The notes below the pieces were generated by a model. The model made no database searches, was not told the origin of the DNA, and saw nothing but the letters and a program-made list of their open reading frames with translations. This document shows positions 3,948 to 21,884 of a DNA stretch of 64,000 nucleotides, one piece after another; positions within the stretch are counted from its first letter, which is position 1, and the number at the start of each line of letters is the position of its first letter. Source of the DNA: Longimicrobiales bacterium (GTDB lineage: Bacteria; Gemmatimonadota; Gemmatimonadetes; Longimicrobiales; Gaopeijiaceae); NCBI GenBank assembly GCA_041690395.1, contig JAWLHJ010000003.1, forward strand, positions 32,001 to 96,000, read 5' to 3'. A program made the position numbers and the translations under genes.

Positions 3948-5212
3948 CACGGGCTGGGCGTTTCGCCGTGCTCCTGGCCGGGCTCGCTCTCCTGGGCGGC
4001 GCCCGGGCCGCCCCCGCTCCGGGTCAGACCCCCGCGCCTCCCTCGGCCGGCGGTGAGCCAGGGTCGGAGCTCCGCGTCTGGCTGATCACGATCGGACCCG
4101 GCGACGCCATCTGGGAGCGCTTCGGGCACAACGCGATCCGTCTGCTCGACACGAGTACCGGCTACGACGCGTCGTACAACTGGGGCATCTTCGATTTCCA
4201 GCAGGAGGATTTCATTCCGCGTTTCCTGCGCGGCGAGATGCTGTACATGATGGCGCCCTTCGCCAGCGAGCCCATGATCGACATGTACCGGGCGGCGGGA
4301 CGGGAGGTGATCGCCCAGGAGCTGGCGCTGACGCCCGCACAGAAGCTCGAGTTGCGCGACTTCGCGGAGCGGAACGCGCTGCCCGGAAACCGTGAGTACT
4401 TCTACGACTACTTCCTGGACAACTGCTCGACGCGGGTTCGCGACCTGCTGGACCGGGTACTGGGTGGCGCCCTTTTCGCGCGCTTCGGCACGGAGCCGAC
4501 GGGGACGTCTTACCGCTATCATACGCGCCGCCTCACCCAGCCCGACCGGCCACTGTACACGGGTATGGACATCCTGCTGGGCAGCCCCGGTGATCAGCCG
4601 ATCACCGTGTGGGCCGAGATGTTCCTGCCCATGACGGTCCGTGACGCCATCCGCGACTTCAGCGTGGACGACGGCGAGGGCGGCACCCGACCCCTCGTGC
4701 TGTCCGAAGAGCTCCTGGCCGAGGCGCGGGTCGCCGACGAGCCCGAACGGGCGCCGACCTGGTGGTACTGGTATCTGCTCGCCGGGCTGCTCGGCGGGGG
4801 GGCGTTCGCGTTCCTCGGGCGTCGGGCCGCGGGCGGCTCGGCACGGGCCCGCTGGGCGTTCGCCGGATTCGGGGGACTCTGGGGCGCCCTGGCGGGCATC
4901 GCCGGTCTCATCCTGGTCGCGGTCCTCTTCACGGACCACCAGTTCATGACGTGGAACGAGAACCTCTTCCTGCTCTCGCCCCTGTCGCTCGCTCTGGCTC
5001 CCCTCGTGCCCCTGGCCGCGATGCGTCCCTCGGTGCGGACGTGGGCCGTGCGCGTGGCGGGAGCCGTGGTGGCGCTCGCGGTGATCGGCCTGGTGATCGG
5101 CCTGCTGCCCTTCGCCGTCCAGCGGAACGCGTTCGAGATCGCCCTCTTCCTCCCGCTCCACGTCGGGCTGTGGCTGGGAGTCAGCGCACTGGGTTCTTCA
5201 GCGACCGGTTGA
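3944..5212 (+). CDS. DUF4105 / Lnb-type lipoprotein N-acyltransferase-like membrane protein
   Basis: TTG start overlapping the upstream stop. Signal peptide, FGHNAIR, YNWGIFDF and YDYFLDNCSTRVRD motifs, then ~4-5 C-terminal TM helices. Confidence 0.75.
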   Translation: MTRAGRFAVLLAGLALLGGARAAPAPGQTPAPPSAGGEPGSELRVWLITIGPGDAIWERFGHNAIRLLDTSTGYDASYNWGIFDFQQEDFIPRFLRGEMLYMMAPFASEPMIDMYRAAGREVIAQELALTPAQKLELRDFAERNALPGNREYFYDYFLDNCSTRVRDLLDRVLGGALFARFGTEPTGTSYRYHTRRLTQPDRPLYTGMDILLGSPGDQPITVWAEMFLPMTVRDAIRDFSVDDGEGGTRPLVLSEELLAEARVADEPERAPTWWYWYLLAGLLGGGAFAFLGRRAAGGSARARWAFAGFGGLWGALAGIAGLILVAVLFTDHQFMTWNENLFLLSPLSLALAPLVPLAAMRPSVRTWAVRVAGAVVALAVIGLVIGLLPFAVQRNAFEIALFLPLHVGLWLGVSALGSSATG

Positions 5213-5971
5213 GGGTGCGGGCCGATACGCCGTCCGGACGAGCCAGAGGACGTCGACGGCGAAGGAGTACGCGAGCAGCGTGAGCGCGAGACCGCATGCG
5301 CCGGCCACCAGCGACGGGGGGACCACCGGCGCGAGGGCCACGAGAAGGGCCGCCACCTGCACGACGCAGATCGCCTTGCGGCGGAAGCTCGGAGGCAGAT
5401 CTCCCGTCAGCGGCGTCCAGAGCCACCCGGCCAGGACGAACAGGTAGCGAACGAGTCCGATCCAGACGACCCAGAAGCCGAGCGGGGTGCTGGTCCACAC
5501 GAGCGCGGCGAGCACGAGGATCAGGAACGCGTCGAGCTCCATGTCGAAGCGGGCGCCGAAACGGGTCTCCGAGGCCGTCCGCCGCGCCACCGCGCCGTCC
5601 ACACCATCGAGTGCGAGCGCCACGAGTGCGAGCGCCACCGCGAGCCATGCGAGGGACCCTAGCGCGCTTCCGGGGGTCACCAGCAGAGCGGCGACGGGTA
5701 GCACCAGCGTGGCGCGCAACAAGGTGACGCGATTCGCCCAGCCGAGCCCGGGTGGCGGCAAGCGTCGGGGAGCGCCGGCAACGACGAGGGCGCTCAGCGC
5801 TGCGTATCCGAGAAGCACCGTCCACACGTACACGTCCGGGAGGTCGTGCCAGCGGGCGATGGCCACGGCGGCGGCGGCCGCAGGGACGGCCGCGACGGCG
5901 AGGTCACGGAAGCGGAATGGCCCGTCGGGACGCGTGGGAGCGGAGTGAGCGGATGGGGGCGGGGTACTCAA
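5198..5971 (-). CDS. CDP-alcohol phosphatidyltransferase family protein
   Basis: Signature DGVDGAVARR...FGARFDMELD plus ANRVTLLR; multi-TM. The start (TTG at 5971) is uncertain. Confidence 0.9.
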   Translation of the reverse strand: MSTPPPSAHSAPTRPDGPFRFRDLAVAAVPAAAAAVAIARWHDLPDVYVWTVLLGYAALSALVVAGAPRRLPPPGLGWANRVTLLRATLVLPVAALLVTPGSALGSLAWLAVALALVALALDGVDGAVARRTASETRFGARFDMELDAFLILVLAALVWTSTPLGFWVVWIGLVRYLFVLAGWLWTPLTGDLPPSFRRKAICVVQVAALLVALAPVVPPSLVAGACGLALTLLAYSFAVDVLWLVRTAYRPAPSTGR

Positions 5972-5996
5972 GGCCTGCGACGATGATTCGAGGACG

Positions 5997-6989
5997 ATGA
6001 CGGAAACGATCCATACCCGGCAATTCTGGATACGGTCGCCCGGGCAGGGCGCGGTCGAGGACCGAGCCATCGCGCCGCCGGGTGCGGGGGAGCTCCTCGT
6101 GGAAGCCTCCTACTCCGGCATCAGCCGCGGCACGGAGGCCCTCGTGTTCAACGGGGCCGTGCCCGAGTCCCAACACGATGCCATGCGTGCGCCCTTCCAG
6201 GAGGGCTCGTTCCCCGGGCCCGTGAAATACGGCTACAGCAGCGTCGGGAGGGTCGCGCGCGCGGCCGACGCCCCCGAGCTCGAGGGACGCTCCGTCTTCT
6301 GCCTGTTTCCGCACCAGGACCGCTACGTCGTCCCGGTGGACGCCGTCGTGCCGTTGCCCGAGGGACTCCCGGAGGGGCGCGCGGTGCTCGGCGCGAACAT
6401 GGAGACGGCGCTCAACGTGGTATGGGACGCGGGGGTCGGACCGGGCGACCGTGCGCTGGTCGTCGGCGGCGGCGTGGTCGGCCTGCTCGTCGCCTGGATC
6501 GCCCGGGGGATCCCGGGGAGCGATGTCCTGATCGTCGACGTGGATCCGTCGCGGGCGGAGGTGGCCGAGGCGCTGGGCGTCTCCTTCGCCGGCTCCGTGC
6601 CCGCGGGCTTCGACGCCGACGTGGTCGTGCACGCCAGCGGCTCGCCGGAAGGAGCCGCCGCGGCTCTTGGCGGGGCGGGTGTCGAGGGGCGGGTCGTCGA
6701 GGCGAGCTGGTTCGGCGACCGGAGCGTGGGCCTGCCGCTCGGCGAGGCGTTCCACGCCCGCAGGATCACGCTTCGGAGCAGCCAGGTCGGGCGGATTCCG
6801 CCGGAGCGGGCGCCGCGCTGGACCCACCGCCGCCGGATCGAGAAGGCATTGGAGCTGCTGCGCGCTCCGGTGCTCGACCGGCTCGTGACCGGAGAGAGCC
6901 CGTTCGACGAGCTTCCAGACACCCTCCGTCGGCTCAGCGACGACCCGGCGGGAGCCCTCTGCCACCGCATCCGATATCGCCCGGGCTGA
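5997..6989 (+). CDS. Medium-chain dehydrogenase/reductase (zinc-ADH fold, catalytic Zn ligands apparently absent)
   Basis: SGISRGTE and GYS in place of C..D/GHE; Rossmann motif VVGGGVVG. Confidence 0.85.
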   Translation: MTETIHTRQFWIRSPGQGAVEDRAIAPPGAGELLVEASYSGISRGTEALVFNGAVPESQHDAMRAPFQEGSFPGPVKYGYSSVGRVARAADAPELEGRSVFCLFPHQDRYVVPVDAVVPLPEGLPEGRAVLGANMETALNVVWDAGVGPGDRALVVGGGVVGLLVAWIARGIPGSDVLIVDVDPSRAEVAEALGVSFAGSVPAGFDADVVVHASGSPEGAAAALGGAGVEGRVVEASWFGDRSVGLPLGEAFHARRITLRSSQVGRIPPERAPRWTHRRRIEKALELLRAPVLDRLVTGESPFDELPDTLRRLSDDPAGALCHRIRYRPG

Positions 6990-7030
6990 GTGTCCGGGAC
7001 CTGTTTACCCTCCCCACTCGAGGAAGACCA

Positions 7031-7429
7031 GTGTATAGCCTGACAGTCCGAGACCACTTCATGATCGCCCACAGCTTCGCGGGCGAGATCTTCGGCCCGG
7101 CCCAGCGCCTCCACGGCGCCACCTATGTCGTGGACGCGTCCTTCCGACGCGGCGATCTCGACGCGGACGGCCTCGTGGTCGACATCGGGAGGGCCCGGGA
7201 GGTGCTGCGCGAAATCCTCAGCGAGCTCGATTACCGCAACCTCGACGAGGTCGAAGCGTTCGAGGGCGAGAACACGACCACCGAGTTCCTGGCTCGCGAG
7301 GTCTTCGACCGGATCGCGAGAGCCCTGCGGGATGGAGCGATGGGCCCGGGTGGGCGTGGCGTCCAGACCGTGGAGGTGACCCTCAAGGAGTCGCACATCG
7401 CCTGGGCGAGCTACGAGGGCGCGGTGTGA
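7031..7429 (+). CDS. 6-pyruvoyl-tetrahydropterin synthase-like T-fold protein (COG0720, atypical PTPS-IV-like)
   Basis: GTG start after GAGGAAG. Motifs MIAHSF, FGPAQRLHGATY, LDYRNLD, NTTTEFLA, ESH. Confidence 0.88.
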   Translation: MYSLTVRDHFMIAHSFAGEIFGPAQRLHGATYVVDASFRRGDLDADGLVVDIGRAREVLREILSELDYRNLDEVEAFEGENTTTEFLAREVFDRIARALRDGAMGPGGRGVQTVEVTLKESHIAWASYEGAV

Positions 7430-8526
7430 CCTCACGGCGTATCCACTTCGTGGTCCCCGGAGCCCTCGACCAGCGGACCGGCGGGTATCTCTACGACGCC
7501 CGCATGGTGGCCGAGATGAGGGCCGTCGGTCGGGATGTCGTCGTGCACGAGCTCGACGGAGCCTTTCCGGCCGCGGACGAGGTGGCGCGTGGAAGCATGG
7601 GGGCGGCGCTGGAGCGGGTCGGCGACGACGAGCTGGTCGTCGTGGACGGCCTCGCCGGCGGCGGACTCCCGGAGGAGCTGGGCCGCCACGCTCGCCGCGT
7701 CCGGCTGGTGGGGCTCGTCCACCACCCGCTCGCCGACGAAACGGGGCTGTCCGAGGCGGAGGCGGCCCGCCTGGCGGCGTCCGAGCGGTCGGCCCTGGCG
7801 GTGTGCCGCGGGGTCGTGGTCACCAGCCGCTTCACCGCCCGGAGACTCGGCGCCTACGGGGTGGCGGCGCGGCGCATCCGGGTGGCCGTCCCGGGGACCC
7901 GTCCCGCTGCGCCCGCGTCGGGCCCCGAGGCCGGAGCCCCGCCGCGGCTTCTGTGCGTGGGCTCCCTGACGCGGAGGAAGGGACATCTGGTCCTGGTCGA
8001 GGCGCTGGCCACGGTCGCGGAGCTGGATTGGAACTGCTCGCTGGCGGGCAGCGAGACGCTCGACCCGGATCATGCGCGTGAGGTGCATCGCGCCGTCACC
8101 GAACACGGGTTGGAGGACCGGGTGTCCTTCCTCGGAGAGCTCGACGAGCCCTCCCTCGACGACGCCTACGCGGGGGCGAGTCTGTTCGTCCTGGCGTCGT
8201 ACTACGAGGGGTACGGCATGGCCCTCACTGAAGCGATCGCACGGGGGCTGCCGGTGCTCAGCACTACGGGCGGAGCGATCCCGTACACGGTGCCCGCGGA
8301 GGCGGGCGTGCTCGTCGAGCCTGGCGACCCGGGGGCACTCGCCCGAGCGCTCCGCGGCCTTCTGGTCGAGCCGGATGGCACGCTAGCCACGCTTCGGGAG
8401 GGGGCCCTCCGTGTGGCGGCCGACCTCCCCGACTGGCTGGCCGCCGGGGCTACATTCCTCTCGGCGGTCGAGGAGGCCGGCCACGGAGTCCCTCTCGCCG
8501 TTTCCGGGACGGGCACGCCGTCATGA
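7426..8526 (+). CDS. Glycosyltransferase family 4
   Basis: TGGYLYD, VGSLTRRKG, EGYGMALTEA (GT-B EX7E motif). Confidence 0.92.
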   Translation: MTSRRIHFVVPGALDQRTGGYLYDARMVAEMRAVGRDVVVHELDGAFPAADEVARGSMGAALERVGDDELVVVDGLAGGGLPEELGRHARRVRLVGLVHHPLADETGLSEAEAARLAASERSALAVCRGVVVTSRFTARRLGAYGVAARRIRVAVPGTRPAAPASGPEAGAPPRLLCVGSLTRRKGHLVLVEALATVAELDWNCSLAGSETLDPDHAREVHRAVTEHGLEDRVSFLGELDEPSLDDAYAGASLFVLASYYEGYGMALTEAIARGLPVLSTTGGAIPYTVPAEAGVLVEPGDPGALARALRGLLVEPDGTLATLREGALRVAADLPDWLAAGATFLSAVEEAGHGVPLAVSGTGTPS

Positions 8527-9353
8527 GCGACGCTCCCGAACGCCGAGACGCGTTTTCCGCCGGCTGGCTCGCGCTGCGGGAGCCCGTCGACCACCGGACG
8601 CGCGCGGAAGCGTTGCTCGCGCCTCTGGCGACGGAGTGGCGGAGGCGGGGGTGGAGACGCGTAGTCGACCTGGGCTCCGGGACCGGATCGAACGCCCGCT
8701 ACCTGGCGCCACGCCTGCCGGGTCCCCAGCGGTGGGTGCTCGTCGACCACGACGCGGACCTGCTCGAGGGGGCCACCGTTCCGTCGTCGGTCGACGACGT
8801 GCGGCGGATCGTGGGCGATCTCGCCGCGGAGGGGCTCGAGGCCGTCCATGAAGCCGATCTGGTCACCGGTTCCGCTCTCCTGGATCTCGTGTCCGGGGCG
8901 TGGCTGGAGCAGCTTGTCGACGCCTGCCTGTCCGCGGGGGCGGGTGCGCTGTTCACCACCATCTACGACGGCACGGTGCATTGGAGCGACGAGCGCCCGG
9001 ACGACGCACGGGTGAAGGAGTTGGTGAACGCTCATCAGGCCCGAGACAAGGGCCTCGGTGGCGCACTCGGCCCGAGGGCGGCTCGCGCGGCTCGTGACCG
9101 GTTCGAGGTCGCGGGCTACCGGACCTGGCTGACGCCGAGCCCGTGGAGCCTCGGTACGGGCGACGCACAGTTGGCGCGCCTGCTAGTCGAAGGTTGGGTC
9201 GATGCGGCGGTCGAGCAGAGCCCCGCCGACGCGGATCGACTCAGGGCGTGGGGCCGTGCGAGGTGCGCGGACGTGGACGGTGGAGTCGCCCGGGTCGTCG
9301 TGGGACATCTGGACCTGCTCGCCCTCCCTCCGGCGGAGCACGAGGACCGGTGA
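8523..9353 (+). CDS. Class I SAM-dependent methyltransferase-like protein
   Basis: FSAGWLALREPVD N-terminus, SAM motif VDLGSGTGSN, SALLDLVS. Confidence 0.85.
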   Translation: MSDAPERRDAFSAGWLALREPVDHRTRAEALLAPLATEWRRRGWRRVVDLGSGTGSNARYLAPRLPGPQRWVLVDHDADLLEGATVPSSVDDVRRIVGDLAAEGLEAVHEADLVTGSALLDLVSGAWLEQLVDACLSAGAGALFTTIYDGTVHWSDERPDDARVKELVNAHQARDKGLGGALGPRAARAARDRFEVAGYRTWLTPSPWSLGTGDAQLARLLVEGWVDAAVEQSPADADRLRAWGRARCADVDGGVARVVVGHLDLLALPPAEHEDR

Positions 9354-10342
9354 AGCGCCGGGCGCGCCGCTGGCTCCGGGGCCTCGCGGGACCCATCATT
9401 CTCCTGGGTGTCGCCCTGACGGTCGACGTCCGAGCGGTGTCGGAGCGCCTCGCCGCCCTCGAGGCGCCCTGGGTGCTAGCCGCGCTTGCGGTCGGCGTCG
9501 GGCAGACGCTCCTCTCCGCCTGGCGCTGGAGGTACACCGCCGGCCGCCTCGGACTCACGATCCCATTTGCGCTGGCGCTCCGCGAGTACTACCGCGCGAT
9601 CTTCCTGAATCAGGTGCTGCCCGGCGGCGTCCTGGGCGACGCCGACCGCGCCTGGCGCCATTCGGGACGAGCTCCCGAGGCGCGCGGGCCGGCGGTTCGA
9701 GCGGTGGTCCTGGAGCGGCTCTCGGGCCAGGTGGTGATGGCCGCGGTGGCGTCGATCTCCTTCGGCTTCATCGCGCTGCGCGCCGGAACCGGGGCCCTCG
9801 GTTGGTGGGTCGCGTCGCTGGGCGTGGCCGCCGTTGCCGGCGTCGCCGTGGCGGTATCGGTCCGAGCGCCGCGCAGCTCCTCGCCCGCTTCGGTGACGGC
9901 CGCCCTCAGACGTGACGCCCGGGCCGCGCTCTTCTCCGGTGAGGCCGTGTACGTCCAACTCGCGACCTCGACGGTCATCATCGCATCGTACGTCGCGGCC
10001 TACCTGCTCGCGGCGCGGGCGGTGGGCGTCGAGACGCCCCTCGTCGCGGTGGCGCCTCTGGTCGCACCGGTCCTGCTGGCGATGCTGCTTCCCGTCTCGG
10101 TCGGGGGGTGGGGCGTGCGTGAGTCCGCCGCGGCCGCGATCTGGAGCGTCGCGGGCCTGGGCGCCTCGGACGGCGTGGCGATCTCCGTCGCGTACGGCCT
10201 GATTGTGCTCGTCGGCACGGTGCCGGGAGGCTACGCGCTCCTGTTCGGTGGAACACCCGTCGCGGCCGAAGCGGTCGAGGGGCTGCCGGAGCCCGCCCGT
10301 AGGTCCAGGTCGAAGAGGATGTCGGCGCCCAGCGCGAAGTGA
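9350..10342 (+). CDS. Lysylphosphatidylglycerol-synthase TM / UPF0104 flippase-like protein
   Basis: SAWRWR, FLNQVLPGGVLGD, VVLERL, PVSVGGWGVRE motifs; multi-TM; GTGA overlap. Confidence 0.88.
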   Translation: MKRRARRWLRGLAGPIILLGVALTVDVRAVSERLAALEAPWVLAALAVGVGQTLLSAWRWRYTAGRLGLTIPFALALREYYRAIFLNQVLPGGVLGDADRAWRHSGRAPEARGPAVRAVVLERLSGQVVMAAVASISFGFIALRAGTGALGWWVASLGVAAVAGVAVAVSVRAPRSSSPASVTAALRRDARAALFSGEAVYVQLATSTVIIASYVAAYLLAARAVGVETPLVAVAPLVAPVLLAMLLPVSVGGWGVRESAAAAIWSVAGLGASDGVAISVAYGLIVLVGTVPGGYALLFGGTPVAAEAVEGLPEPARRSRSKRMSAPSAK

Positions 10343-11136
10343 CGGCAAGCGGGCCGGAGCGCGGCGTCGAGCTCGTCGATGACCGGCAGGCTCAGCCCCT
10401 GGCGCCCGGATCCGATGATCATGGGCGCGACCGTGACGTGCAGCCGATCGAGCGCGCCGGCCTCCAGGAAGCGGGATACGGTGATGCCACCGCCTTCGAC
10501 AAGGATCCGCCGGTAGCCACGCCCGCGCAGCAGCGCAATGAGGGCTCCAGGAGGTACGGACCCGGCGCGCCCACGCTCTGGCGGCGCGATGACCTCCACG
10601 TGGCCGGGTAGACCCGCCTCCGGCGTACCGTCCCGGATCCAGAGCGTGGGCGCGTCGGCGTCGGTGAAGAGCGGCCCTTCCGGCGGGACGCGCCCGTTCG
10701 GATCGAGCACGATCCTGGTCGGATGCTCTCCTTCGACGAGGCGCACCGTCAGGCGCGGGGCGTCGGAGACGGCAGTCCCCGCGCCGACGATCACGGCGTC
10801 GACGAGGGCGCGCAGGCGGTGGAGTCTCACGATGTCCTCCGGGCCGGTCACGTAGTGGGACCGACCGGACTCCGTGGCCACCCGTCCGTCGAGGCTCTGC
10901 CCGATCTGGCCCACGACGTAGTCCGGGCGCGCCGCCAGCGGCAGATAGAGGTCCAGGATCGCTCGGGCCTCCGGGCCAGGAGGAGGCTGGGTGTGCCACC
11001 CCCCTTCGTCGTCGAGCACGAGGAGGTGGCCGGAGGCGTCGCGCACGCGCGCGGGCGGCGCCGACCCGTCCGACACGGCGCCGGCCACCGCGCGCACCAG
11101 CGACCAGGCCGCGGCCGCGTCGAGTGAGGCGTTCAC
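10231..11136 (-). CDS. RibD C-terminal-type reductase (no deaminase domain)
   Basis: QSLDGRVAT, RLRALVDAVIVGAGT..DAPRLTVR, LVEGGG motifs; no HAE/PCxxC deaminase motif. GTGA overlap with the creatininase stop. Confidence 0.88.
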   Translation of the reverse strand: MNASLDAAAAWSLVRAVAGAVSDGSAPPARVRDASGHLLVLDDEGGWHTQPPPGPEARAILDLYLPLAARPDYVVGQIGQSLDGRVATESGRSHYVTGPEDIVRLHRLRALVDAVIVGAGTAVSDAPRLTVRLVEGEHPTRIVLDPNGRVPPEGPLFTDADAPTLWIRDGTPEAGLPGHVEVIAPPERGRAGSVPPGALIALLRGRGYRRILVEGGGITVSRFLEAGALDRLHVTVAPMIIGSGRQGLSLPVIDELDAALRPACRHFALGADILFDLDLRAGSGSPSTASAATGVPPNRSA

Positions 11137-11954
11137 GACCGGTCCGTCAGGCGATCCAGCGGGAAACGGGCCGCGTCGGCGAGCACGCGCGCGAGGTACG
11201 CGCCGTATCCTTCGACGAGGCGGGCGCCCATCTCCTTCGTGGCCAGGTGCGCGTTGCCGGTCACGCCGTCGGGGTTGAGATCCTGCGCGGTCCAAGCGAA
11301 CGCGGCGGCTCCCTCGGGCAGCAGGACGTCGAGGGTCTCCTCGAGCTTCGCGCCGAGCGACGGGAAGTCCCGAACGGTCTCCTTCCGCACCAGATCGGGA
11401 CGGAGGTGCATCATCATGGCCGTCTCGACCGCACCGCCGTGGAGCCCGTGACGCCATTCGGCTTCCGGCAGCTCGACGCCGTCCGGCCGGGGAAACCGGA
11501 AGACGTGGGCCTTCACCACCAGGAGCCCGTGATCCGTCCGCGCCCGGAGCGCGGCCCCGTCGACGACATGCTTGTTGCCCCCGTGCGCGTTCAGGATCAC
11601 CAGCCGGTGGATCCCCTCGGCCGCGACCGCGGCGGCCAGCGAGCCGAGTACGCGCCCGAGGGTCTCCGCGTCCAGCGACAGGGTGCCCCCGAGCCCCACG
11701 TGCTCCTCGCTCGAGCCGAGGGAGAGGTGCGGCAGGACGACGACGGGCACCTTGGCCGCCGTGGACTCCAGGGCCCGCTCCAGGATGCCTGCCGCGATCA
11801 GGAGGTCGGTCGACACCGGGAGGTGCGGCCCGTGCTGCTCGATCGCGCCGAGGGGCAGGACGGCGACCGGATCGTGTCCGGCGGCGGCCGCGAGCTCCGG
11901 GCGGGTCGCGGTCTCCCAGGAGAGCGGGAAGACGGGGGCGGGCGCTCGGGTCAT
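11133..11954 (-). CDS. Creatininase-family amidohydrolase (candidate formamidopyrimidine deformylase)
   Basis: LPLGAIEQHGPHLPVSTD, SEEH, NAHGGN, HGGAVET. Confidence 0.92.
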   Translation of the reverse strand: MTRAPAPVFPLSWETATRPELAAAAGHDPVAVLPLGAIEQHGPHLPVSTDLLIAAGILERALESTAAKVPVVVLPHLSLGSSEEHVGLGGTLSLDAETLGRVLGSLAAAVAAEGIHRLVILNAHGGNKHVVDGAALRARTDHGLLVVKAHVFRFPRPDGVELPEAEWRHGLHGGAVETAMMMHLRPDLVRKETVRDFPSLGAKLEETLDVLLPEGAAAFAWTAQDLNPDGVTGNAHLATKEMGARLVEGYGAYLARVLADAARFPLDRLTDRS

Positions 11955-12700
11955 GGGACGGACTCCTCGATCAAGCGGGCGTACAGGTCGCCGAACGGGA
12001 GATCGTCCGCGCCTCCTTGGAGCCACGCGCGCGCCTCACCGGCGGTGAGCCATCCGTCGAAGACGAAGTTGCGGTCCTCTCCGGCCACGGCATTGTACTC
12101 GTAACGCCCCAGCGTCTCCAGCCGTGCGACGCACGCCTCGGCCACCTCGAGCCCTCCCCGGACGAACTCCACCGAGAGCGCCGACACGGCCCGGCTGAGG
12201 CCCTCGAGCGCTTCGGCCTCGTAGCCCTCGATGTCCAGCTTGCAGAAATCCGGGAGGCCGAAACGGTCCACGAGCGCGTCCAGCGTCGTCATGGGGACCT
12301 CGATCTCGTCCTCCCAGCGCACGCCCTCGAACCCCGGATTGCGCTCGGGCATCCGGTCGCGCCACAGCCGTGAGACCGTCGATACGGTGGGGGTGCGCCG
12401 ACTCACCGCCAGGCGGGCGGTCCCCTCCTTCGGGCCGACGGCCTCCTCGACGATCTCGACGCCCGAGCGGCGCCCCACCAGCCGGCGGAGCCACGTGGCG
12501 ACCCGCGGCTGCGGCTCGAGCGCGATCACCCGGGCTCCGAGGGCCGAGAACGCCGCGGTTCGGTCGCCCAGGTGGGCGCCGACGTCGAACACGAGGGAGC
12601 CCCGGCCGACGAACGGCCGGTACAGGCGGCGGAGGGCCGGCTGTCTCCCCGGGCGCCAGTAGACGAGGAGGGAGCGCAGGAGCCCGAAGATCTCACCCAC
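11951..12700 (-). CDS. FkbM family methyltransferase
   Basis: FDVGAHLG, ALEPQP, TTLD, KLDIEGYE. Confidence 0.9.
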   Translation of the reverse strand: MGEIFGLLRSLLVYWRPGRQPALRRLYRPFVGRGSLVFDVGAHLGDRTAAFSALGARVIALEPQPRVATWLRRLVGRRSGVEIVEEAVGPKEGTARLAVSRRTPTVSTVSRLWRDRMPERNPGFEGVRWEDEIEVPMTTLDALVDRFGLPDFCKLDIEGYEAEALEGLSRAVSALSVEFVRGGLEVAEACVARLETLGRYEYNAVAGEDRNFVFDGWLTAGEARAWLQGGADDLPFGDLYARLIEESVP

Positions 12701-14393
12701 CGGGACCGGCCTGCGCGAGGTCCTTGGGTCCGCTGAAGGTCGGCACGAACCAGGGCCGGAAGCGGTCCATGCGAGGGGCATCTCCCTCTGGGTCCGGGAA
12801 CGCCCCGGGCACGAAGCCCCACTCGAGGAACGGCGCCACGAGGTCCGGGTCACCGCTGACGACGTGCACGGGGACGGTCCGTGGCGCGCCGTCCCCGGTC
12901 ACCAGCGGCGCGGGCTGGTGATCGCCGAGAATGATCAGCAGCATGTCCTCGCCGACGTAGCGCTCGGCGTAGGACGTCGCCGAGTGCACGGCGTAGTCGA
13001 TGGACAGCGCGAAGTGCTCCCGCACGCGGTCGGCGTTCCGCCAGAGGTCCTCGGGGCGCTCACCGGCATCGCGCCAGGGCTCGAACACGGCGCCGTTTCC
13101 GATGCCTTCCCAGTCTTCGAGCACCGGCAGGATGGGGGTCCACGGCGCGTGGCTGCTGATCAGCCCCAGCTCCGCGAAGAGCGGACGCTCGTCGTCGCGC
13201 CCGCGGATGGTGTGCTCGAGGAACGACCAGGTGAACTGGTCCGGCATGGTCACCCAGTTCAGCGGGGGGCCGGCATACCCGATGGCCTCGAAGTCGTAGA
13301 TCTCGTCGTAGCCGAACCGCTCACCCTCGGGCCAGGCGAGCGTGATGGCCGGCATCAATGCCGCCGTGCGGTATCCCGCGGCGCGGAAGTCGTCGACGAG
13401 CGTCTGGCGGCGGCTCGCGAGCAGGAGGTCGTAGCGCATCTGGTTGTGGAGCCAGAGGCCGCTCAGCACGGAGCCGTGGCCGAGCCAGGACTGCCCGCCC
13501 TGGCTCGGCGCCACCATGCTGCCGCTCGCGAGCGTCAGTCCCGCTTCGGCCATGCGACGCTCCATCTCCTCGAGTCGCGGCCGCAGGACGGATGCGTAGC
13601 GGGGATCGTCCAACACCACGCTCCCGTACGACTCGACGAACGCGAGCACGACGTCCCGGCCGCCGAGTCGGTCGAACAGGCCCGGGAGCTCCGCGTAGCT
13701 GTCGGTCGTCGCCGAGAGCTCGGCCTCGAAGGCCTCTCGCTCCTCATTGAGCGCCGACAGGAAGCGGGATTGCTCCAGCACGAGACGGACCCCCGGGAAC
13801 CCGAGGCCGCCCGCTCCGCCCGCGGCACGCGCTCCGAACATCATCATACCGGTCACCACGACCGCGATCACGGCATTCCGCCGGCTCCATAGAATGGGGC
13901 GGACGCCGCGCGGCGGGGCCAGCAGGTGGCCGAGGACCGCCACGGTGGCGAGGACGGCGCTCACTGCGAGCACCCCGGCGAGAGCCGCCGCCACCCCTCC
14001 CAACGTTCCCGTCAGGAGGTTGAAGACGGCGCTCAGGAGCTGGACGTCGAGATACAGGTTGAGCGGGCGGGACAGGCTCATGCGGGTCGAGGCGTCGCCG
14101 AGACCGATCAGCCCGGTCGCAACGACCAGCGTGGCGGCGAGCAGGGCGGCCGCCAGGCTCCACCAGGCACGGGGAAGCGCGGCGAACACGAGGGCGAGGA
14201 GCCAGGCCTCGACCGCGATCCAATGGAACGGAACCATGCCGGGGGCGCCCCATTGCGGGGCGAGCAGCACGGCATTGACAACCAGAAACGCCAGGACGAG
14301 GCTCAGGAGTCTTCCGGACGCGGTCGACGGCCACGAGGCCAGCGCCTTCGCGACGGAGGCCGGTCTCCCGACGGTCGCCGAATCGGAGCTCAT
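12693..14393 (-). CDS. Membrane-anchored alkaline-phosphatase-superfamily (LtaS/OpgB/sulfatase-like) protein
   Basis: ~5 N-terminal TM helices, then FVESYG, GGQSWLGH, SSHAPW and GDHQP metal-site motifs. Confidence 0.8.
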   Translation of the reverse strand: MSSDSATVGRPASVAKALASWPSTASGRLLSLVLAFLVVNAVLLAPQWGAPGMVPFHWIAVEAWLLALVFAALPRAWWSLAAALLAATLVVATGLIGLGDASTRMSLSRPLNLYLDVQLLSAVFNLLTGTLGGVAAALAGVLAVSAVLATVAVLGHLLAPPRGVRPILWSRRNAVIAVVVTGMMMFGARAAGGAGGLGFPGVRLVLEQSRFLSALNEEREAFEAELSATTDSYAELPGLFDRLGGRDVVLAFVESYGSVVLDDPRYASVLRPRLEEMERRMAEAGLTLASGSMVAPSQGGQSWLGHGSVLSGLWLHNQMRYDLLLASRRQTLVDDFRAAGYRTAALMPAITLAWPEGERFGYDEIYDFEAIGYAGPPLNWVTMPDQFTWSFLEHTIRGRDDERPLFAELGLISSHAPWTPILPVLEDWEGIGNGAVFEPWRDAGERPEDLWRNADRVREHFALSIDYAVHSATSYAERYVGEDMLLIILGDHQPAPLVTGDGAPRTVPVHVVSGDPDLVAPFLEWGFVPGAFPDPEGDAPRMDRFRPWFVPTFSGPKDLAQAGPGG

Positions 14394-14429
14394 GGTCGTT
14401 CGTGCCGGTCCACGGAGTTCGAGGTCATC

Positions 14430-16127
14430 ATGTCGTTTCGTCTGCCCGCCGCACTGATCGCCCTCGTCACGGGAATCCTCGTCGCGCTGTGGATATCGCG
14501 GGCCCCGACGCTACCGCCCGGAGACCGCGGGGCCAACCCCGAGGTCACAGAGGGAACTCCCGGCGCCACCGCACCCGGCTCCTCGGCGCCCCCGGCTCCC
14601 GCGGGACCCGCCACCGGCTCCGCGGAACTGCCGACCTGGGAGGTCGCACCCGGGTCGATCGAAGACGATCTCACCCGGATCGCCCGGGACCTCGCCCGCT
14701 CCGAGTACCGCCCGCCGGACGCCGCCGTTCCCCCGGCGCTCCTGGGTCTGGACTTCGACGGCTACCGCCGGATCCGCTTCCGACCCGAGCAGGCGATCTG
14801 GCGGGGCGTCACGGACTACGAGCTGCAGCTCTTTCACCTGGGCACTTCTCTGTACGACCAGCCGGTGAGCGTGCACCTGGTGGAGGACGACTCCGTCCGG
14901 CGCCTCGAGTACGACCCGGCCCTGTTCGCCTTCGAGGGGGCCGCGACGTCGCTGGCCGACCTGGCCCCCGGCGCCGTGCCCGGCTTCGCCGGCTTCCGCG
15001 TCCACTACCCGCTCAACGATCCCGACACCCACGACGAGGTCGCGGCGTTCCTGGGCGCCTCGTATTTCCGAGTGCTCGGCTCGGGGCAGGAGTACGGGCT
15101 TTCGGCCCGCGGCCTGGCGGTCGACCCCGCGGTCGAGGGTCCGGAGGAGTTTCCCGACTTCCGCGCGTTCTGGATCGAGCGGCCCGACGCGGCGGGGAGT
15201 CCAATCGTGATCCACGCGCTCCTCGACGGTCCGTCCGTTTCGGGGGCGTTCCGCTTCGAGCTCGGTCCCGGGGACCCGACCGAGGTGCTCGTCGACGCGC
15301 GCCTGTTCGCTCGACGCGACGTCCGGAAGCTCGGGGTGGCGCCGCTGAGCAGCATGTTCCTGCACGCTCCCGGGCACGGCCCGTCGCACGACGACTTCCG
15401 TCCCCGCGTCCACGACTCCGACGGCCTCCAGACCAAGACGGGGAAGGGGGAGTGGATCTGGCGTCCGCTCGGCAATGGACCCGGGCTCCACGTCACGTCG
15501 CTCAGGGACGAGGCCCCGGCAGGCTTCGGACTCCTCCAGCGCGCACGGGACTTCGAGGACTACCTCGACCTCGAGGCGCGGTACCATCGCCGCCCGGGAT
15601 ACTGGATCGAGGTGCTAGGCGGCGATTGGGGGGCGGGAGGCGTCGAGCTGCTGGAGATTCCCTCCGCGTCGGAGTTCAACGACAACGTCGCTGCGTACTG
15701 GGTGCCCGACCGGCCGTTCCGCGCAGGTGACGAGCGGCGCTTCCGTTATCGCCTGGTGACGGTGGGGGGCGTACCGCCCGAGATGGACGTGGCACGCGTC
15801 GTGCGTACGGTGGTGTCTTGGGATGCGCTCCCCGGTGAGGCGAATCCGCCGCCACGAAGCCGGCGCCGTTTCGTCGTCGACTTCCGGGGAGGGCGGCTTT
15901 CCGATCCCGAGGTGGTAGACGACCTTCGGGTGGATCTTTCGGTGTCACGCGGAGCCGTGGAGGAGGTCATGATCGTGCCTCTCCCGGGTAACAGTGGCCG
16001 GAGGGTGACGTTCGCCCTCGATCCCCAGGGAGATGCACCGGCCGACATGCGCCTCAACCTCGTCGCGGGCGATGAGCCCGTGAGCGAGACGTGGAGCTAC
16101 GTGTGGTACCCAGGAAGAATCGACTGA
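14430..16127 (+). CDS. opgG: Periplasmic glucan biosynthesis protein OpgG/OpgD (MdoG family)
   Basis: YRRIRFRP, FLGASYFR, YGLSARGLA, EEFPDF, RPRVHDSDGL, EWIWRPL, EFNDN. N-terminal hydrophobic anchor and Pro/Ala linker. Confidence 0.92.
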   Translation: MSFRLPAALIALVTGILVALWISRAPTLPPGDRGANPEVTEGTPGATAPGSSAPPAPAGPATGSAELPTWEVAPGSIEDDLTRIARDLARSEYRPPDAAVPPALLGLDFDGYRRIRFRPEQAIWRGVTDYELQLFHLGTSLYDQPVSVHLVEDDSVRRLEYDPALFAFEGAATSLADLAPGAVPGFAGFRVHYPLNDPDTHDEVAAFLGASYFRVLGSGQEYGLSARGLAVDPAVEGPEEFPDFRAFWIERPDAAGSPIVIHALLDGPSVSGAFRFELGPGDPTEVLVDARLFARRDVRKLGVAPLSSMFLHAPGHGPSHDDFRPRVHDSDGLQTKTGKGEWIWRPLGNGPGLHVTSLRDEAPAGFGLLQRARDFEDYLDLEARYHRRPGYWIEVLGGDWGAGGVELLEIPSASEFNDNVAAYWVPDRPFRAGDERRFRYRLVTVGGVPPEMDVARVVRTVVSWDALPGEANPPPRSRRRFVVDFRGGRLSDPEVVDDLRVDLSVSRGAVEEVMIVPLPGNSGRRVTFALDPQGDAPADMRLNLVAGDEPVSETWSYVWYPGRID

Positions 16128-16128
16128 C

Positions 16129-19071
16129 TTGATCGCTACGGCTCAATTACCTATCCGAAGCTCGCCCCCTGCCGCGCGGCTCGATACGCCGTGGCTCGGG
16201 CTGCGCCGTGCCCTGTTTTTCGCTCTCGTCCTCGCCACCACGGTGTACGGCGTGTCGATGATGGCCGCGTTGGTGTCGGGTGGAGGCACGACCCGGCTCG
16301 AGCTGCTGATCCTCGTTTTGTTCGCGCCCACGTTCGCGTGGATCTCCGTCGCATTCTGGAATGCCGTGGTGGGGTTCATCCTCCGGGCGTTCGGACGCGA
16401 CCCGCTGACGCTCGAGCGCATCGACGCCCCGGGTGGCCCGGCCCGGTTGGCGCCGCTCAGTTCGAGAACGGCGCTGGTCGTGCCGGCCCGGAACGAAGAC
16501 GCCTACGCGGTCGTTCGGCGAATCGAGGCGATGTTGGGGTCCCTCGAGAGGGCAGGTCATGCCGGCGCCTTCGACGTGCACCTCCTGAGCGACACCGACG
16601 ATCCGGAGCGGATCCCGGCGGAAGATGGGGCGTGGGCGGGTCTGGCCGGGCGCTACTCGGGCGCGGCCGGGCTCCATTACCGACGCCGAGCGCACAACGA
16701 AGGTCGGAAAGCCGGCAACATCGCGGAGTTCCTCGGCCGCGCGGGCGCGGGGTACGAGTACATGGTGGTGTTGGACGCCGACTCCGTCATGTCGGCCGAC
16801 ACCCTCGTCCGGCTCGTGCGTACGATGGACGCGAACCCGACGGCCGGCCTGGTGCAGACGGTTCCGCTTCCGGGCCCGCAGACGACGCGCTTCGGGCGCT
16901 TCGTCGAGCTTGCCGCCGGCCTGTACGGACCGATGCTCGCGGCCGGGCAGAGCTTCTGGCAAGGCGACGCCGCCAACTACTGGGGGCACAACGCGATCGT
17001 GCGTGTCGAGCCCTTCGTGCGGCACTGTCGGCTGCCGGTGCTGTCCGGCTCGCCGCCCCTCGGCGGTGAGATCCTGTCGCACGACTTCGTGGAGGCCGCA
17101 TTGCTGCGTCGGGCCGGTTGGGGGGTATACCTCCTGGCCGGGGCCGGAGGGAGCTGGGAGGACGTCCCCGCGAACCTGATCGACTACGCGCGGCGGGACC
17201 GCCGTTGGTCCCAGGGAAGCCTGCAACACCTGAAGCTGCTCGCGCTCGGGGGCCTTCACCCCATCAGCCGGCTGCACTTCCTGCTGGGCGCCATGGGATA
17301 TGTGTCGTCCCTCCTGTGGCTCCTGCTTCTGTTGGCGAGCACGGCGTACGTGGCCGGCGTCGCGCCGCTCGCGGATCCCGTGCTGGACGGGGTCGCGGGC
17401 ATGGGCTCGTGGACCCTCCTCCAGCCTTTACCCTCGCTGCTGGCGGTGACGGCGGCGATCCTCTTTCTGCCCAAGGGACTCGGGTTGCTGCTCGCGCTCC
17501 GGCAGCGGGAGCGGTACGGGGGGGCGGCGCGGTTGATCGGTGCCGGTGTCGCGGAAGCAGGCTTCGCGGTCGTGGTGGCGCCGATCATGATGATGTTCCA
17601 CGCGAAGTTCGTGTTGGAAGTCATGGTAGGACATTCGGTTGCCTGGACGACGCAGCTCCGTGACGGCACGTCGGTGCCGTGGGGCGATGCGACCCGGGCG
17701 GTCGGATGGATCGGCGCCGGGGGACTCCTCTGGGCCGCGGGAACGTGGTCCCTGAGTCCTCTGTTCTTCGCGTGGATGGCCCCGATTTTCATCGGGCTGC
17801 TCGCCGCGATTCCTCTCGTCCGATGGACCTCTCGTCCGTCGGTCGGTGTTTTCGACTCCGGTCCGATGCAAGACCGGGTTCCATTTTCTCCGGTATCCGG
17901 GACCGCCGTAGAGCGGGGAGGTTCGGTGAACGATATGTACGAGGCAGAGCGTGGGCTCTTCGAGCTGAGACGGCGTCGGGCGCTGCTCGTCACGCACGCG
18001 GCGAACGGCGACGGTACGGCGGGGGGCGACGCGCTGGTCGCGTCCGCCGAAGGATTGGGTGACGAGACCTTGGCGTCCCTGCGCCGCCTCGCCGATGGGC
18101 CGCTCCACCTGGTCGTCACGCCGCACCGGGCCCGTGCCCTCGGCATCCAACTCAGCCCCGGCCCGCTGGCGTTGCGGCTCCCGGCCGACGCCGGTCCGGG
18201 TGACGTGCTCCACCTGTGCAGCGAGCGCGGATCGACTCCGCCACGCGGTATGACCGTTCGACCGGCCACGGCGGCCGAGGCGCAGGGTCTGGCGTTGGCC
18301 CGGCTCGCCCAGCTCCTCCCGGCTGTGGTGGCGGGAAGTGTCTCGTCGACCCCGCGTGCGGAGCTGACGGAGGTACTGGCCGCCCGCCGGATCCTGCAGG
18401 TCGACTCGAAGCGCATCCGTGCCGCGCTCGAAGCGCCGAGGATCTCCGTCTCGCAGGTCAGTGAAGCCCCGGTTCCGCTGCAGGATGCCGAGGACGCCCG
18501 CTTCGTCCTGTTCCGGGAGGATCATGCTCTCCTGGAGCACGTCGCGATCATGATCGGGCGTCGCGAAGCGTGGCCGGACCCGGTGCCGGTGCGGCTGCAC
18601 TCGGCGTGCCTCACGGGCGACCTGTTCGGGAGCCTGAAATGCGACTGCGGCGAGCAGCTTCGCGGGAGCCTTCGGCACTTCCAGGAGCAGGGGGGCGGCG
18701 TGCTGCTCTATCTCCAGCAGGAAGGGAGGGGCATCGGGCTCGGAAACAAGCTGCGGGCCTACTCGCTCCAGGACGGAGGACTCGACACGGTGGACGCGGA
18801 CTGCACGCTCGGCTTCGGACCGGACGAGCGGACCTACGACGCCGCTCTCGACATGCTCCACCAACTCGGGATCGAGCGCGTGCAGCTGCTCACGAACAAC
18901 CCGGACAAGCTGAGGGCCGTGGAGCGGGGCGGGATCCAGGTCATGGATCGCATGCCCCTCCACGGGACGCTCAACCGGTACAATCTCCCGTACGTGAAGG
19001 CGAAGGTGCAGCGCGCCGGCCACTGGCTGGGCGACATGCTCTCCGGCGTGTCGGGGAACGGAAGTAGTTGA
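16129..19071 (+). CDS. Fusion ORF: glucan glucosyltransferase OpgH (MdoH, GT2) + degenerate RibB-like domain + GTP cyclohydrolase II (RibA)
   Basis: aa ~1-570: RKAGNI, VLDADS, NYWGHNAI, LSHDFVEA, RDRRWSQG and TM helices. C-terminus: VRLHSACLTGDLFGSLKCDCGEQL, QEGRGIGLGNKLRAY, LLTNNPDK. No stop codon between the halves. Confidence 0.88.
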   Translation: MIATAQLPIRSSPPAARLDTPWLGLRRALFFALVLATTVYGVSMMAALVSGGGTTRLELLILVLFAPTFAWISVAFWNAVVGFILRAFGRDPLTLERIDAPGGPARLAPLSSRTALVVPARNEDAYAVVRRIEAMLGSLERAGHAGAFDVHLLSDTDDPERIPAEDGAWAGLAGRYSGAAGLHYRRRAHNEGRKAGNIAEFLGRAGAGYEYMVVLDADSVMSADTLVRLVRTMDANPTAGLVQTVPLPGPQTTRFGRFVELAAGLYGPMLAAGQSFWQGDAANYWGHNAIVRVEPFVRHCRLPVLSGSPPLGGEILSHDFVEAALLRRAGWGVYLLAGAGGSWEDVPANLIDYARRDRRWSQGSLQHLKLLALGGLHPISRLHFLLGAMGYVSSLLWLLLLLASTAYVAGVAPLADPVLDGVAGMGSWTLLQPLPSLLAVTAAILFLPKGLGLLLALRQRERYGGAARLIGAGVAEAGFAVVVAPIMMMFHAKFVLEVMVGHSVAWTTQLRDGTSVPWGDATRAVGWIGAGGLLWAAGTWSLSPLFFAWMAPIFIGLLAAIPLVRWTSRPSVGVFDSGPMQDRVPFSPVSGTAVERGGSVNDMYEAERGLFELRRRRALLVTHAANGDGTAGGDALVASAEGLGDETLASLRRLADGPLHLVVTPHRARALGIQLSPGPLALRLPADAGPGDVLHLCSERGSTPPRGMTVRPATAAEAQGLALARLAQLLPAVVAGSVSSTPRAELTEVLAARRILQVDSKRIRAALEAPRISVSQVSEAPVPLQDAEDARFVLFREDHALLEHVAIMIGRREAWPDPVPVRLHSACLTGDLFGSLKCDCGEQLRGSLRHFQEQGGGVLLYLQQEGRGIGLGNKLRAYSLQDGGLDTVDADCTLGFGPDERTYDAALDMLHQLGIERVQLLTNNPDKLRAVERGGIQVMDRMPLHGTLNRYNLPYVKAKVQRAGHWLGDMLSGVSGNGSS

Positions 19072-19072
19072 C

Positions 19073-19573
19073 CTGAGGCGGTTCCTGGCTGTGGCGGCCC
19101 TGGCGATGGCCGCCTGCTCCGGTCCGCCTGAGGTCGAGCGCGATCCCGCTCCGCTCCTGCAGACCTCGGCGGTGCGGTACACGTTCGAGCGGCACGACTT
19201 CGGCTATTCGACGACGATTCCGTTCACCTACAGGAACGAGACCGACGTCGACGTGCTCGTGGACCACTGTGACGGCGACGTCCGCCCGCTCCTCCAGATC
19301 CGCCGCGGCGACCGGTGGGTCGACCAGTGGCACCCGTTCATGGACGGCTGCTCGAGCCCACCCCTCCGTATCGCCCCCGGCGAGGTCTACTCCGACACGT
19401 TACGCGTGATCGGGGCCCCGCCGGGATCGAACGTCACGCCGGCCTTCGTGTTCGAAGACGTGGAAGGCGTGTATCGTTTGTATTGGTTCCAGGCGCGCCT
19501 TTCCGACTCGGACTCGGTCGCCACCGCACTGCCGTGGCGCGTCTCGAACCCGTTCGTGATCGAGCTCCCTTGA
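19073..19573 (+). CDS. Hypothetical lipoprotein (beta-rich)
   Basis: Lipobox MAAC. A complete signal (RRFLAVAALAMAAC) needs the CTG at 19073; the first canonical start is GTG 19091. Confidence 0.65.
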   Translation: MRRFLAVAALAMAACSGPPEVERDPAPLLQTSAVRYTFERHDFGYSTTIPFTYRNETDVDVLVDHCDGDVRPLLQIRRGDRWVDQWHPFMDGCSSPPLRIAPGEVYSDTLRVIGAPPGSNVTPAFVFEDVEGVYRLYWFQARLSDSDSVATALPWRVSNPFVIELP

Positions 19574-19588
19574 CGACATCGGCCGCCC

Positions 19589-19786
19589 ATGCCTCCCAGC
19601 AGATTCGTCTCCTCGGACCGCCTCATGCGGATGACGGTCTTCTTGACGTCCGCCGTCGTCATCCTGGTCGGGCTCGACGTCGGGCTTCGTGCGCTCGGCT
19701 CCGGTCCCGCAGCGCGCCTGGTGCTCGTCGTAGCGTGGCTGGTGCTGCTCCCGGTGCTCGGATGGCGCGTCTGGAAGGGCCATTGA
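19589..19786 (+). CDS. Small two-TM hypothetical membrane protein
   Basis: 65 aa ORF with two hydrophobic helices, filling the intergenic gap. Confidence 0.55.
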   Translation: MPPSRFVSSDRLMRMTVFLTSAVVILVGLDVGLRALGSGPAARLVLVVAWLVLLPVLGWRVWKGH

Positions 19787-19838
19787 CCCCTCGGGCTCGC
19801 ACGAGCAGGTTCCGGAGACCGCCCACATCCCACGCCAG

Positions 19839-19873
19839 GCGCGGCCCCGATAGTCCCGGGCGCCGCGCTTTTT
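19839..19873 (+). promoter_or_regulatory. Stem-loop upstream of thrS (candidate anticodon-mimic operator or terminator)
   Basis: GCGCGGC-CCCG / CGGG-C-GCCGCGC stem with 7-nt loop ATAGTCC, followed by TTTTT. Confidence 0.45.
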
Positions 19874-19885
19874 CAACCCTGAGCC

Positions 19886-21811: not shown

Positions 21812-21838
21812 CCAGGGCTCCGAGACGCGCCATCGCCG

Positions 21839-21867
21839 TTGACCGCGCGCCCTCATTGCCTCATCTT
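21839..21867 (+). promoter_or_regulatory. Candidate sigma70 promoter for the infC operon
   Basis: TTGACC-17 nt-CATCTT. Confidence 0.4.
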
Positions 21868-21884
21868 GTCCGCACGACAATCAG

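Follow-up and report, generated by a model that had tools for sequence, protein, structure and literature searches.

An orphan gene cluster with a GTP cyclohydrolase fused to the periplasmic glucan synthase OpgH in a Longimicrobiales bacterium

The stretch of DNA analysed here – 64,000 nucleotides from a Longimicrobiales bacterium (GenBank assembly GCA_041690395.1, contig JAWLHJ010000003.1, positions 32,001 to 96,000 of the forward strand), referred to below as the window – contains, at 5198-19071, a compact cluster in which genes of a candidate GTP-derived pathway adjoin opgG and opgH, the genes for synthesis of periplasmic glucans (OPGs). It comprises 12 open frames, each with a single stop (Table 1). 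The original prediction, made from the sequence alone, was right about all 12 genes and their spacings, every frame being intact: the divergent junctions measure 36 bp and 25 bp (the latter if the gene for the CDP-alcohol phosphotransferase, CDP-AP, starts at TTG 5971), one convergent pair shares 112 bp, neighbouring genes overlap by 4, 4, 4, 4, 4 and 8 nt, there is a single 41-bp gap, and opgG and opgH lie 1 nt apart. The GC content of the cluster (0.69-0.735) equals or slightly exceeds the range of the window. Genes are named here after their Pfam and NCBIfam model matches, which uphold the predicted family labels; of the 13 functions predicted for the 12 genes, all are present, with the correction that two of them, OpgH and GTP cyclohydrolase II (GCH II), are encoded by one open frame.

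Table 1. Genes of the cluster, with window coordinates and the basis of each assignment
Gene product	Coordinates	Strand	Basis and remarks
CDP-AP	5198..5971	-	PF01066 E 2e-15; start tentatively placed at TTG 5971
MDR-family dehydrogenase, without the usual catalytic Cys (S43-x-G-x-E47)	5997..6989	+	MDR match weak, BchC-like
PTPS-IV (T-fold; FGPAQ, HGAT), SCO6650 orthologue	7031..7429	+	PF01242; 3D7J E 2.9e-48
GT4 glycosyltransferase	7426..8526	+	Pfam match; profile against solved structures
Class I S-adenosylmethionine-dependent methyltransferase	8523..9353	+	PF13649, weak
MprF/UPF0104-type flippase domain (LPG_synthase_TM)	9350..10342	+	PF03706 E 8e-37
Reductase-only RibD	10231..11136	-	PF01872 (RibD_C)
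Creatininase-family amidohydrolase	11133..11954	-	PF02633 E 9e-63
FkbM-family methyltransferase	11951..12700	-	PF05050, TIGR01444
Membrane-anchored LtaS/EptA-fold phosphotransferase	12693..14393	-	Sulfatase Pfam weak (E 5e-5); predicted fold
OpgG (MdoG, GH186)	14430..16127	+	PF04349 E 5e-168
OpgH fused in frame to GCH II, 980 aa	16129..19071	+	MdoH and GCH II models

In the fused protein, OpgH occupies residues 20-574, scores up to 672 bits against MdoH models and carries the motifs DADS, SHDFVEA and RDRRW, while a PRK08815-type GCH II match extends over residues 604-967 (GCH II region about 603-980) with the motifs CxxxxxxxxxxCxC, EGR and RAY. The OpgH part retains its last membrane helix, and the variable tail is replaced by the cyclohydrolase. 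The fusion is real: an assembly artefact is excluded by uninterrupted open frames of 993-1074 aa in six related genomes (G002-G005, G013 and G017; in G001 there are two adjacent separate genes), by a soil metagenome contig (X1) that spans the junction with 84 substitutions and zero gaps, and by the homologues of the cyclohydrolase region, 100 of the 120 best listed having PF00925 and PF13632 in one protein (539-1715 aa), with Gemmatimonadota or Longimicrobiales given wherever a source is named. Among 26 further opgH loci fetched from the family, 11 have the fusion, 3 have the cyclohydrolase adjacent but separate, and 12 have it elsewhere. A further genome, G025, flagged as unpublished, was counted only in the comparison of open frames, and no conclusion depends on it. 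This fusion is new in this analysis – no report of an OpgH-RibA fusion was found in a literature search, on which subscription papers and bioRxiv supplements may still bear. Two further proteins listed among the homologues (P0106 and P0107) have GCH II fused to CDP-AP; ten others (P0105, P0110-P0112 and P0115-P0120) have it fused to GTP cyclohydrolase I (GCH I), and a eukaryotic one (P0113) combines a HAD hydrolase, GT4 and GCH II.

The core of the cluster belongs to a known orphan type, defined by a class IV homologue of 6-pyruvoyl-tetrahydropterin synthase (PTPS-IV), the signature of which is FGPAQ (PMC5445326). The window's PTPS has this motif, conserves H14, H28, E85 and E120 in the alignment and is surrounded by the expected neighbours: GCH II or III, RibD-C, MDR, GT4, methyltransferase, CDP-AP and flippase. 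The same families are seen in Figure S4 of PMC5445326, where PF00925, PF01872, PF00534, PF00107, PF03706, PF01066, PF13649 and PF05165 – that is, GCH II, RibD-C, GT4, MDR, flippase, CDP-AP, methyltransferase and GCH III – stand just before clusters 55 and 62; PF04349 and PF13632 are not present in two supplements of that paper. (The paper terms PF00925 ‘GTP cyclohydrolase I, FolE2’, the Pfam name being GTP cyclohydrolase II.) The proposed kinship with the SCO6650-SCO6655 region of Streptomyces coelicolor was confirmed by orthology of the PTPS to SCO6650 (E 3e-48) and the common FGPAQ signature; the Streptomyces loci differ in having neither opgGH nor FkbM, a Met in place of the cyclohydrolase Tyr and a distant type of creatininase. 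SCO6652 is tabulated among developmental transcriptome changes in PMC3610822, and SCO6655 among genes anticorrelated with predicted flux in PMC2853524.

The cluster type is widespread. By estimate, the PTPS-IV motif matches some 8,400 stretches in 185,579 species genomes, the hosts being Actinobacteria, Proteobacteria, Bacteroidota, Cyanobacteria and Acidobacteria; the scan for it yielded 120 loci, 80 of them with flanks (50 actinobacterial, 25 proteobacterial and 5 others, grouped by record title); as certain loci are cut by contig ends, counts of absence are floors. The actinobacterial loci contain MDR in 49 cases, GT4 in 48, CDP-AP in 45, the flippase in 45, the methyltransferase in 40, GCH in 37 and the transferase in 18, and in 10 of these 18 CDP-AP and the transferase share one open frame. 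In eight actinobacterial loci without FkbM (L039:3161-3919 and seven more), a further class I methyltransferase gene lies close to those for CDP-AP and the transferase. Annotated plasmids bear the cluster without opgH in Streptomyces, Rhizobium, Agrobacterium, Thiodictyon and Palleronia, and with an adjacent mdoH in Methylosinus and Neorhizobium, the mdoH of the latter lying 2 bp upstream of the MDR gene. A plasmid of the archaeon Haloarcula pelagica (L247:4491-11277) carries GT4, a Gfo/Idh/MocA oxidoreductase, CDP-AP, GTP cyclohydrolase IIa, MDR, PTPS and a methyltransferase.

As originally claimed, this is not a riboflavin operon: deaminase, lumazine synthase and riboflavin synthase are absent from the cluster and are found in a complete ribD-ribE-ribBA-ribH-nusB operon elsewhere in the genome (G000:C3, about 480.1-483.9 kb), the separate housekeeping set whose existence the prediction had proposed to confirm. 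Since the genome has this operon and also a GCH I gene (on C6), the cluster is needed for neither riboflavin nor folate. Nor does it encode a bifunctional RibBA, as there is no match to PF00926 (DHBP synthase) and the cyclohydrolase half alone aligns with the genome's RibBA. The early archaeal and fungal riboflavin route also joins a cyclohydrolase, a deformylase and a reductase acting before deamination, and the window's reductase is nearest to enzymes of that kind; the cluster differs in lacking the three later functions. Pterin glycoside pathways (BH4, or tetrahydrobiopterin, glucosyltransferases; PDB 5ZE7 and 9V0L) likewise combine a PTPS homologue, an oxidoreductase and a GT4, whereas the window's cluster starts from GCH II rather than GCH I, its PTPS is without the catalytic Cys motif, and its GT4 is no orthologue of the BH4 glucosyltransferases, being far nearer to 6KIH and MshA.

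The cytoplasmic enzymes give some indication of the likely substrate. GCH II relies on three zinc-binding cysteines, a catalytic Arg and the Tyr of the RAY motif, and all of these occur in the window's sequence. In 28 of 106 loci this Tyr is replaced by Met or His, and every one of the 28 carries the distant creatininase; a different creatininase occurs in 33 of the 76 Tyr-type loci, including the window. In Streptomyces, a Met-type cyclohydrolase reportedly yields a formylated product that is then handled by a deformylase, which fits the pairing of Met with the distant creatininase. The best solved relatives of RibD are archaeal diamino-ribosylamino-pyrimidinone phosphate reductases (6P8C and 2AZN), which act on the undeaminated substrate, and 86 of 90 sequences have Gln or His where bacterial RibD has a Lys – presumably the residue of the Lys152 rule. 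For the MDR protein (model pLDDT 96), the nearest folds are polyol dehydrogenases (L-idonate, sorbitol and xylitol dehydrogenases and TarJ). The GT4 profile comes closest to 6KIH (E 1e-43), which we take to be a sucrose-phosphate synthase, and to the MshA type (3C4Q and 7QSG; E 3e-36 and 3e-33), reaching only E 1e-14 with BH4 glucosyltransferases. The class I methyltransferase conserves DLGxGTGS in 50 rows, and a profile search of PDB gave no close solved relative. The nearest solved relatives of GT4, MDR and RibD thus all work on polyols or polyol phosphates.

On the other side of the membrane, the putative transferase was predicted to be LtaS/OpgB-like, and its model (pLDDT 91) supports an LtaS/EptA fold. 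It has five predicted transmembrane helices at the N-terminus, followed by an alkaline-phosphatase fold with the Glu, hydroxyl nucleophile, His and Asp-His typical of the LtaS/OpgB/EptA group (E254, S302, H415 and D491 are invariant in 53 rows), and would face the periplasm. The top Foldseek matches are LtaP/LtaS, EptA, EptC and GacH, with TM-scores of 0.34-0.43 of the query and 9-16% identity; a profile search of PDB found no sequence match to solved structures, and an ESM Atlas search gave ‘Sulfatase’ clusters only. A formylglycine sulfatase was rejected, as the C/SxPxR motif is absent (S302-W-x-x-H instead) and the fold is of the LtaS/EptA kind; the protein is not OpgB proper either, the curated family model being unmatched (0 NCBIfam families at E 0.01). 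OpgG matches 1TXK at E 2e-107 and keeps the NDN motif with the residue corresponding to EcOpgG D361, so that opgG and opgH, with their GH186 and GT2 motifs, form a group 1 OPG pair by sequence. In CDP-AP, D100, D103, G104, R108, G117, D121 and D125 are invariant in 30 aligned rows.

Two known systems offer a template. Periplasmic glucans are modified with phosphoglycerol, succinate and phosphoethanolamine through OpgB, OpgC and OpgE (PMC10514313). The E. coli opgGH system with OpgB/OpgE has the canonical OpgG and OpgH catalytic motifs in common with the window, where an LtaS/EptA/GacH-fold enzyme is the neighbour; the differences are that the window's OpgH bears GCH II, that the predicted nucleophile of the transferase is Ser, and that a pathway of its own would supply the head group. 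The MprF/LtaS logic, in which a head group is made inside, flipped and used outside, is likewise matched by CDP-AP, LPG_synthase_TM and an LtaS-fold enzyme, except that the window lacks an aminoacyl synthase domain and the donor is predicted to be GTP-derived.

On this basis we propose a route built from gene content, fusion, conservation, the either-or pattern described below, folds and motifs, with each reaction taken from the chemistry of the enzyme's family. Its product, X, would be a GTP-derived heterocycle bearing ribitol phosphate. GCH II, tethered by OpgH at the inner face of the membrane, would convert GTP into 2,5-diamino-6-ribosylamino-pyrimidinone 5'-phosphate, which the RibD reductase would turn into the ribityl form without deamination; the invariant core of MDR, PTPS-IV, GT4 and class I methyltransferase would then oxidise, rearrange or close, glycosylate and methylate it. 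CDP-AP would couple X with CDP-diacylglycerol, the flippase would turn the resulting phosphatidyl-X outward, and the LtaS-fold enzyme would, via Ser302, move X-phosphate to an acceptor – here the OpgGH-made β-1,2-glucan – much as OpgB transfers phosphoglycerol. Where a lineage has no OpgH, the endpoint would be the lipid itself or another polymer, and many Alphaproteobacteria would use a dedicated OpgH paralogue in place of the lipid route. That the product reaches the envelope by one of the routes considered here seems to us very probable; the complete relay from lipid to glucan is the reading that we favour, at slightly less than even odds. As the tailoring enzymes suggest that the substrate is a polyol phosphate, X is somewhat more apt to have retained its ribityl chain (as an open ring or an 8-ribityl-pteridine) than to have lost it. 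A neopterin-type ring is a less probable, if credible, identity for X; such a pterin product is possible because an isomerase of Chlamydia turns the GCH II product into dihydroneopterin phosphate (PMC4161248).

The link to opgGH recurs throughout the window's family. Of the 251 genomes examined from the order, 28 have OpgH, 38 PTPS-IV and 26 both, all in one family (f1); a search of 251 genomes belonging to other families of the phylum found no OpgH. In G239 and G254, which have OpgH and no PTPS match, opgH stands beside the transferase, FkbM and creatininase genes. Of the 27 other opgH loci of the order, 26 were fetched, two of them cut by contig ends; opgG is head-to-head with the transferase gene in all 24 loci holding both, across at least four gene orders. 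Adjacency of opgGH to the module is therefore no peculiarity of this genome – the outcome that had been named as fatal to the original prediction – and it has counterparts in a separate OpgH clade of Alpha- and Betaproteobacteria, recruited independently, and in one further genome, G295. There, a canonical opgH lies upstream of CDP-AP, YceI, FkbM and RibD on one strand (L231:6846-11716), about 65 kb from the PTPS-IV core.

In the 25 proteobacterial loci, OpgH is found in 11 and CDP-AP in 8, never together, and the same either-or pattern holds in a larger set of Alphaproteobacteria. PTPS-IV is present in 42 of 401 genomes, and a distinct paralogue, OpgH2 (at least 514 bits, against at most 393 for the remaining OpgH), in 20, every one of which has PTPS-IV. 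OpgH2 forms its own clade (support 100/100 in a 29-row tree) and is altered next to the catalytic base (SHDQ[IVL]EA and RDLRW). The 40 fetched loci contain OpgH2 in 12 cases, CDP-AP in 14 and both in none; a whole-genome profile search found no module-type CDP-AP in 11 of 11 OpgH2 genomes (best hit at most 41 bits), and seven of eight OpgH2-negative genomes without CDP-AP in the locus have it elsewhere (172-248 bits). CDP-AP is present in 21 of 22 OpgH2-negative PTPS-IV genomes, so that 41 of 42 have either CDP-AP or OpgH2. In five further OpgH genomes, a search run without a positive control gave no match to the window's CDP-AP or transferase. This complementarity of OpgH2 and CDP-AP suggests that a single product leaves by either of two outlets, glucan synthase or phospholipid linkage.

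Since the Alphaproteobacteria that use OpgH lack CDP-AP, flippase and transferase, a lipid-to-glucan relay is ruled out for them, and the exclusion of the lipid route by OpgH2 fits direct glucosylation better. OpgH might thus act on X itself, extending an X-glycoside with glucose to X-(glucose)n, which would leave through the OpgH channel and be trimmed by OpgG, the lipid being a parallel second anchor. For the window we consider this unlikely. The position of OpgH2, often in place of CDP-AP and divergent from MDR, and its altered residues would suit such a role; the window's OpgH, with SHDFVEA, is not of this type (it clusters with canonical OpgH in the 29 rows) and is accompanied by OpgG and a full lipid route. 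GT4 enzymes, moreover, are retaining and give α products, poor primers for a β-1,2 synthase, and the CDP-AP check was limited to 10 kb in 8 of the 20 OpgH2 genomes. A different separation – GTP-derived genes feeding a soluble cofactor (a flavin, F420 or pterin derivative) next to an unrelated envelope pathway – might be suggested by the Chlamydia isomerase and by the placing of PTPS-IV in F420 synthesis, on unpublished work (PMC5041015). The genome's own rib operon and GCH I, the fusions of GCH II to OpgH or CDP-AP, and the presence of CDP-AP or OpgH2 in nearly all the PTPS-IV Alphaproteobacteria make it very improbable.

Other observations also weigh against the relay proposed for the window. 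Twelve of the 38 module-bearing genomes of the order are without OpgH yet retain the transferase (13 of 13 loci, in which it faces the cyclohydrolase); OpgH is found in 0 of 50 actinobacterial loci (as is FkbM), in 0 of 10 additional gammaproteobacterial loci (from 11 matches in 300 genomes; 8 of the 10 have CDP-AP) and not in the Haloarcula locus, which is of GCH III type and has CDP-AP; and three of seven transferase-bearing alphaproteobacterial genomes (G504, G506 and G595) lack OpgH at E 1e-40. The family counts may stem from the acquisition of one island and hence not be independent. Fisher tests of co-occurrence overstate significance, the genomes being kin, and carry no weight here. Within the fusion, the GCH II start Met is retained in 17 of 17 rows shown (some being one genome fetched twice), GGAGG lies 13 nt upstream of this internal Met (17935) in the window, and the linkers vary between genera; because of the retained Met and the upstream GGAGG, free GCH II could also be made, and the fusion could be a lost stop codon. 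As the window's GCH II keeps its Tyr, the creatininase is, to judge from sequence, without an obvious job, a deaminase role being conceivable. The literature search found no product for the cluster, subject to the same restriction on subscription papers and bioRxiv supplements.

Much of this would be expected if the pathway ended with phosphatidyl-X as a lipid, or with X attached to a different polymer of the envelope, with opgGH as passengers of a stress island making ordinary glucan and the fusion as a lost stop codon. CDP-AP is indeed the commonest partner, the window's OpgH is canonical, and opgGH-free forms are nested among opgGH-bearing ones in the MDR and GT4 trees, which are too weakly supported for gains, losses or fusions to be counted. 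Passengers would hardly explain, though, why opgG and the transferase gene keep their head-to-head arrangement despite rearrangement, why OpgH was not found in the phylum apart from module genes, or why another OpgH clade is found together with the module; this alternative strikes us as rather doubtful, if less so than direct glucosylation. Of the original prediction of a GTP-derived head group passed from lipid to glucan, then, the recurrent opgGH link and the transferase fold speak for the chain as such, whereas the glucan fails as acceptor for the whole cluster type: it looks, from the sequences, like one of two outlets rather than a universal acceptor.

What is new beyond the known core is the fusion, the OpgH link in the window's order and the OpgH2/CDP-AP either-or pattern. 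The fusion and the pattern show where to look – polar lipids in some hosts, periplasmic oligoglucosides in others – and thereby make the orphan pathway directly testable. If the relay is real, it is an undescribed decoration of the cell envelope, in which a GTP-derived, sugar-bearing group is placed on lipid and then on periplasmic glucan; a decorated glucan would be a new class of envelope molecule, and its substituent would join phosphoglycerol, phosphoethanolamine and succinate as the fourth kind on OPGs. As a tentative generalisation, thousands of prokaryotic species might carry, outside the cytoplasm, a redox-active heterocycle derived from GTP, either attached to β-1,2-glucan or forming the head group of a phospholipid. 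This locus would then hold both anchors and the relay, and hence give the first periplasmic glucan with a nucleobase-derived substituent, which cytochrome b561 might recycle.

A cytochrome b561 gene (PF01292) occurs in 27 loci (e.g. L142:12058-12681), between FkbM and the transferase in the window's family and beside RibD in Proteobacteria, and is absent from the window's cluster; a YceI gene (PF04264) adjoins CDP-AP, cyclohydrolase or OpgH2 in proteobacterial loci (L190:12167-12745, L018:13089-13670 and others). These recurrent neighbours hint at a redox role in the envelope, which we regard as unlikely on present grounds. Several loci have fkbM directly after opgH2, and none of the 120 best OpgH2 homologues listed is an OpgH-FkbM fusion. 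A Tat-signal protein of about 330 aa without a Pfam domain accompanies opgH2, often after fkbM, in six loci (L058:2238-3224; L069, L207, L225, L238 and L239). No OpgG-like product was matched by phmmer among the open reading frames (ORFs) downstream of 14 OpgH2 genes; in Ancylobacter, canonical opgGH adjoins opgH2. In Halomonas, Salinicola, Variovorax and Xanthomonas, opgH lies away from the module, and a paralogue-type mdoH on one plasmid is found at the end of its record with no module genes in view. Genome G009 has two copies of the module (L156 and L157), both without opgGH.

A promoter and terminator scan of the cluster gave hits at chance level only, and comparison with sequencing runs gave small word shares, the sole RNA run (X9, as contigs) providing no expression or habitat signal. 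Upstream of the cluster (window 886-5212) lie genes for a 275-aa protein that matches no Pfam family, an E1 dehydrogenase with its alpha and beta parts fused, and a membrane protein of Lnb-like type, the end of the last gene overlapping that of the CDP-AP gene by 15 bp; downstream (19091-26848), a 160-aa protein without a Pfam match is followed by further ORFs, which we take to be thrS, infC, rplT, pheS and pheT.

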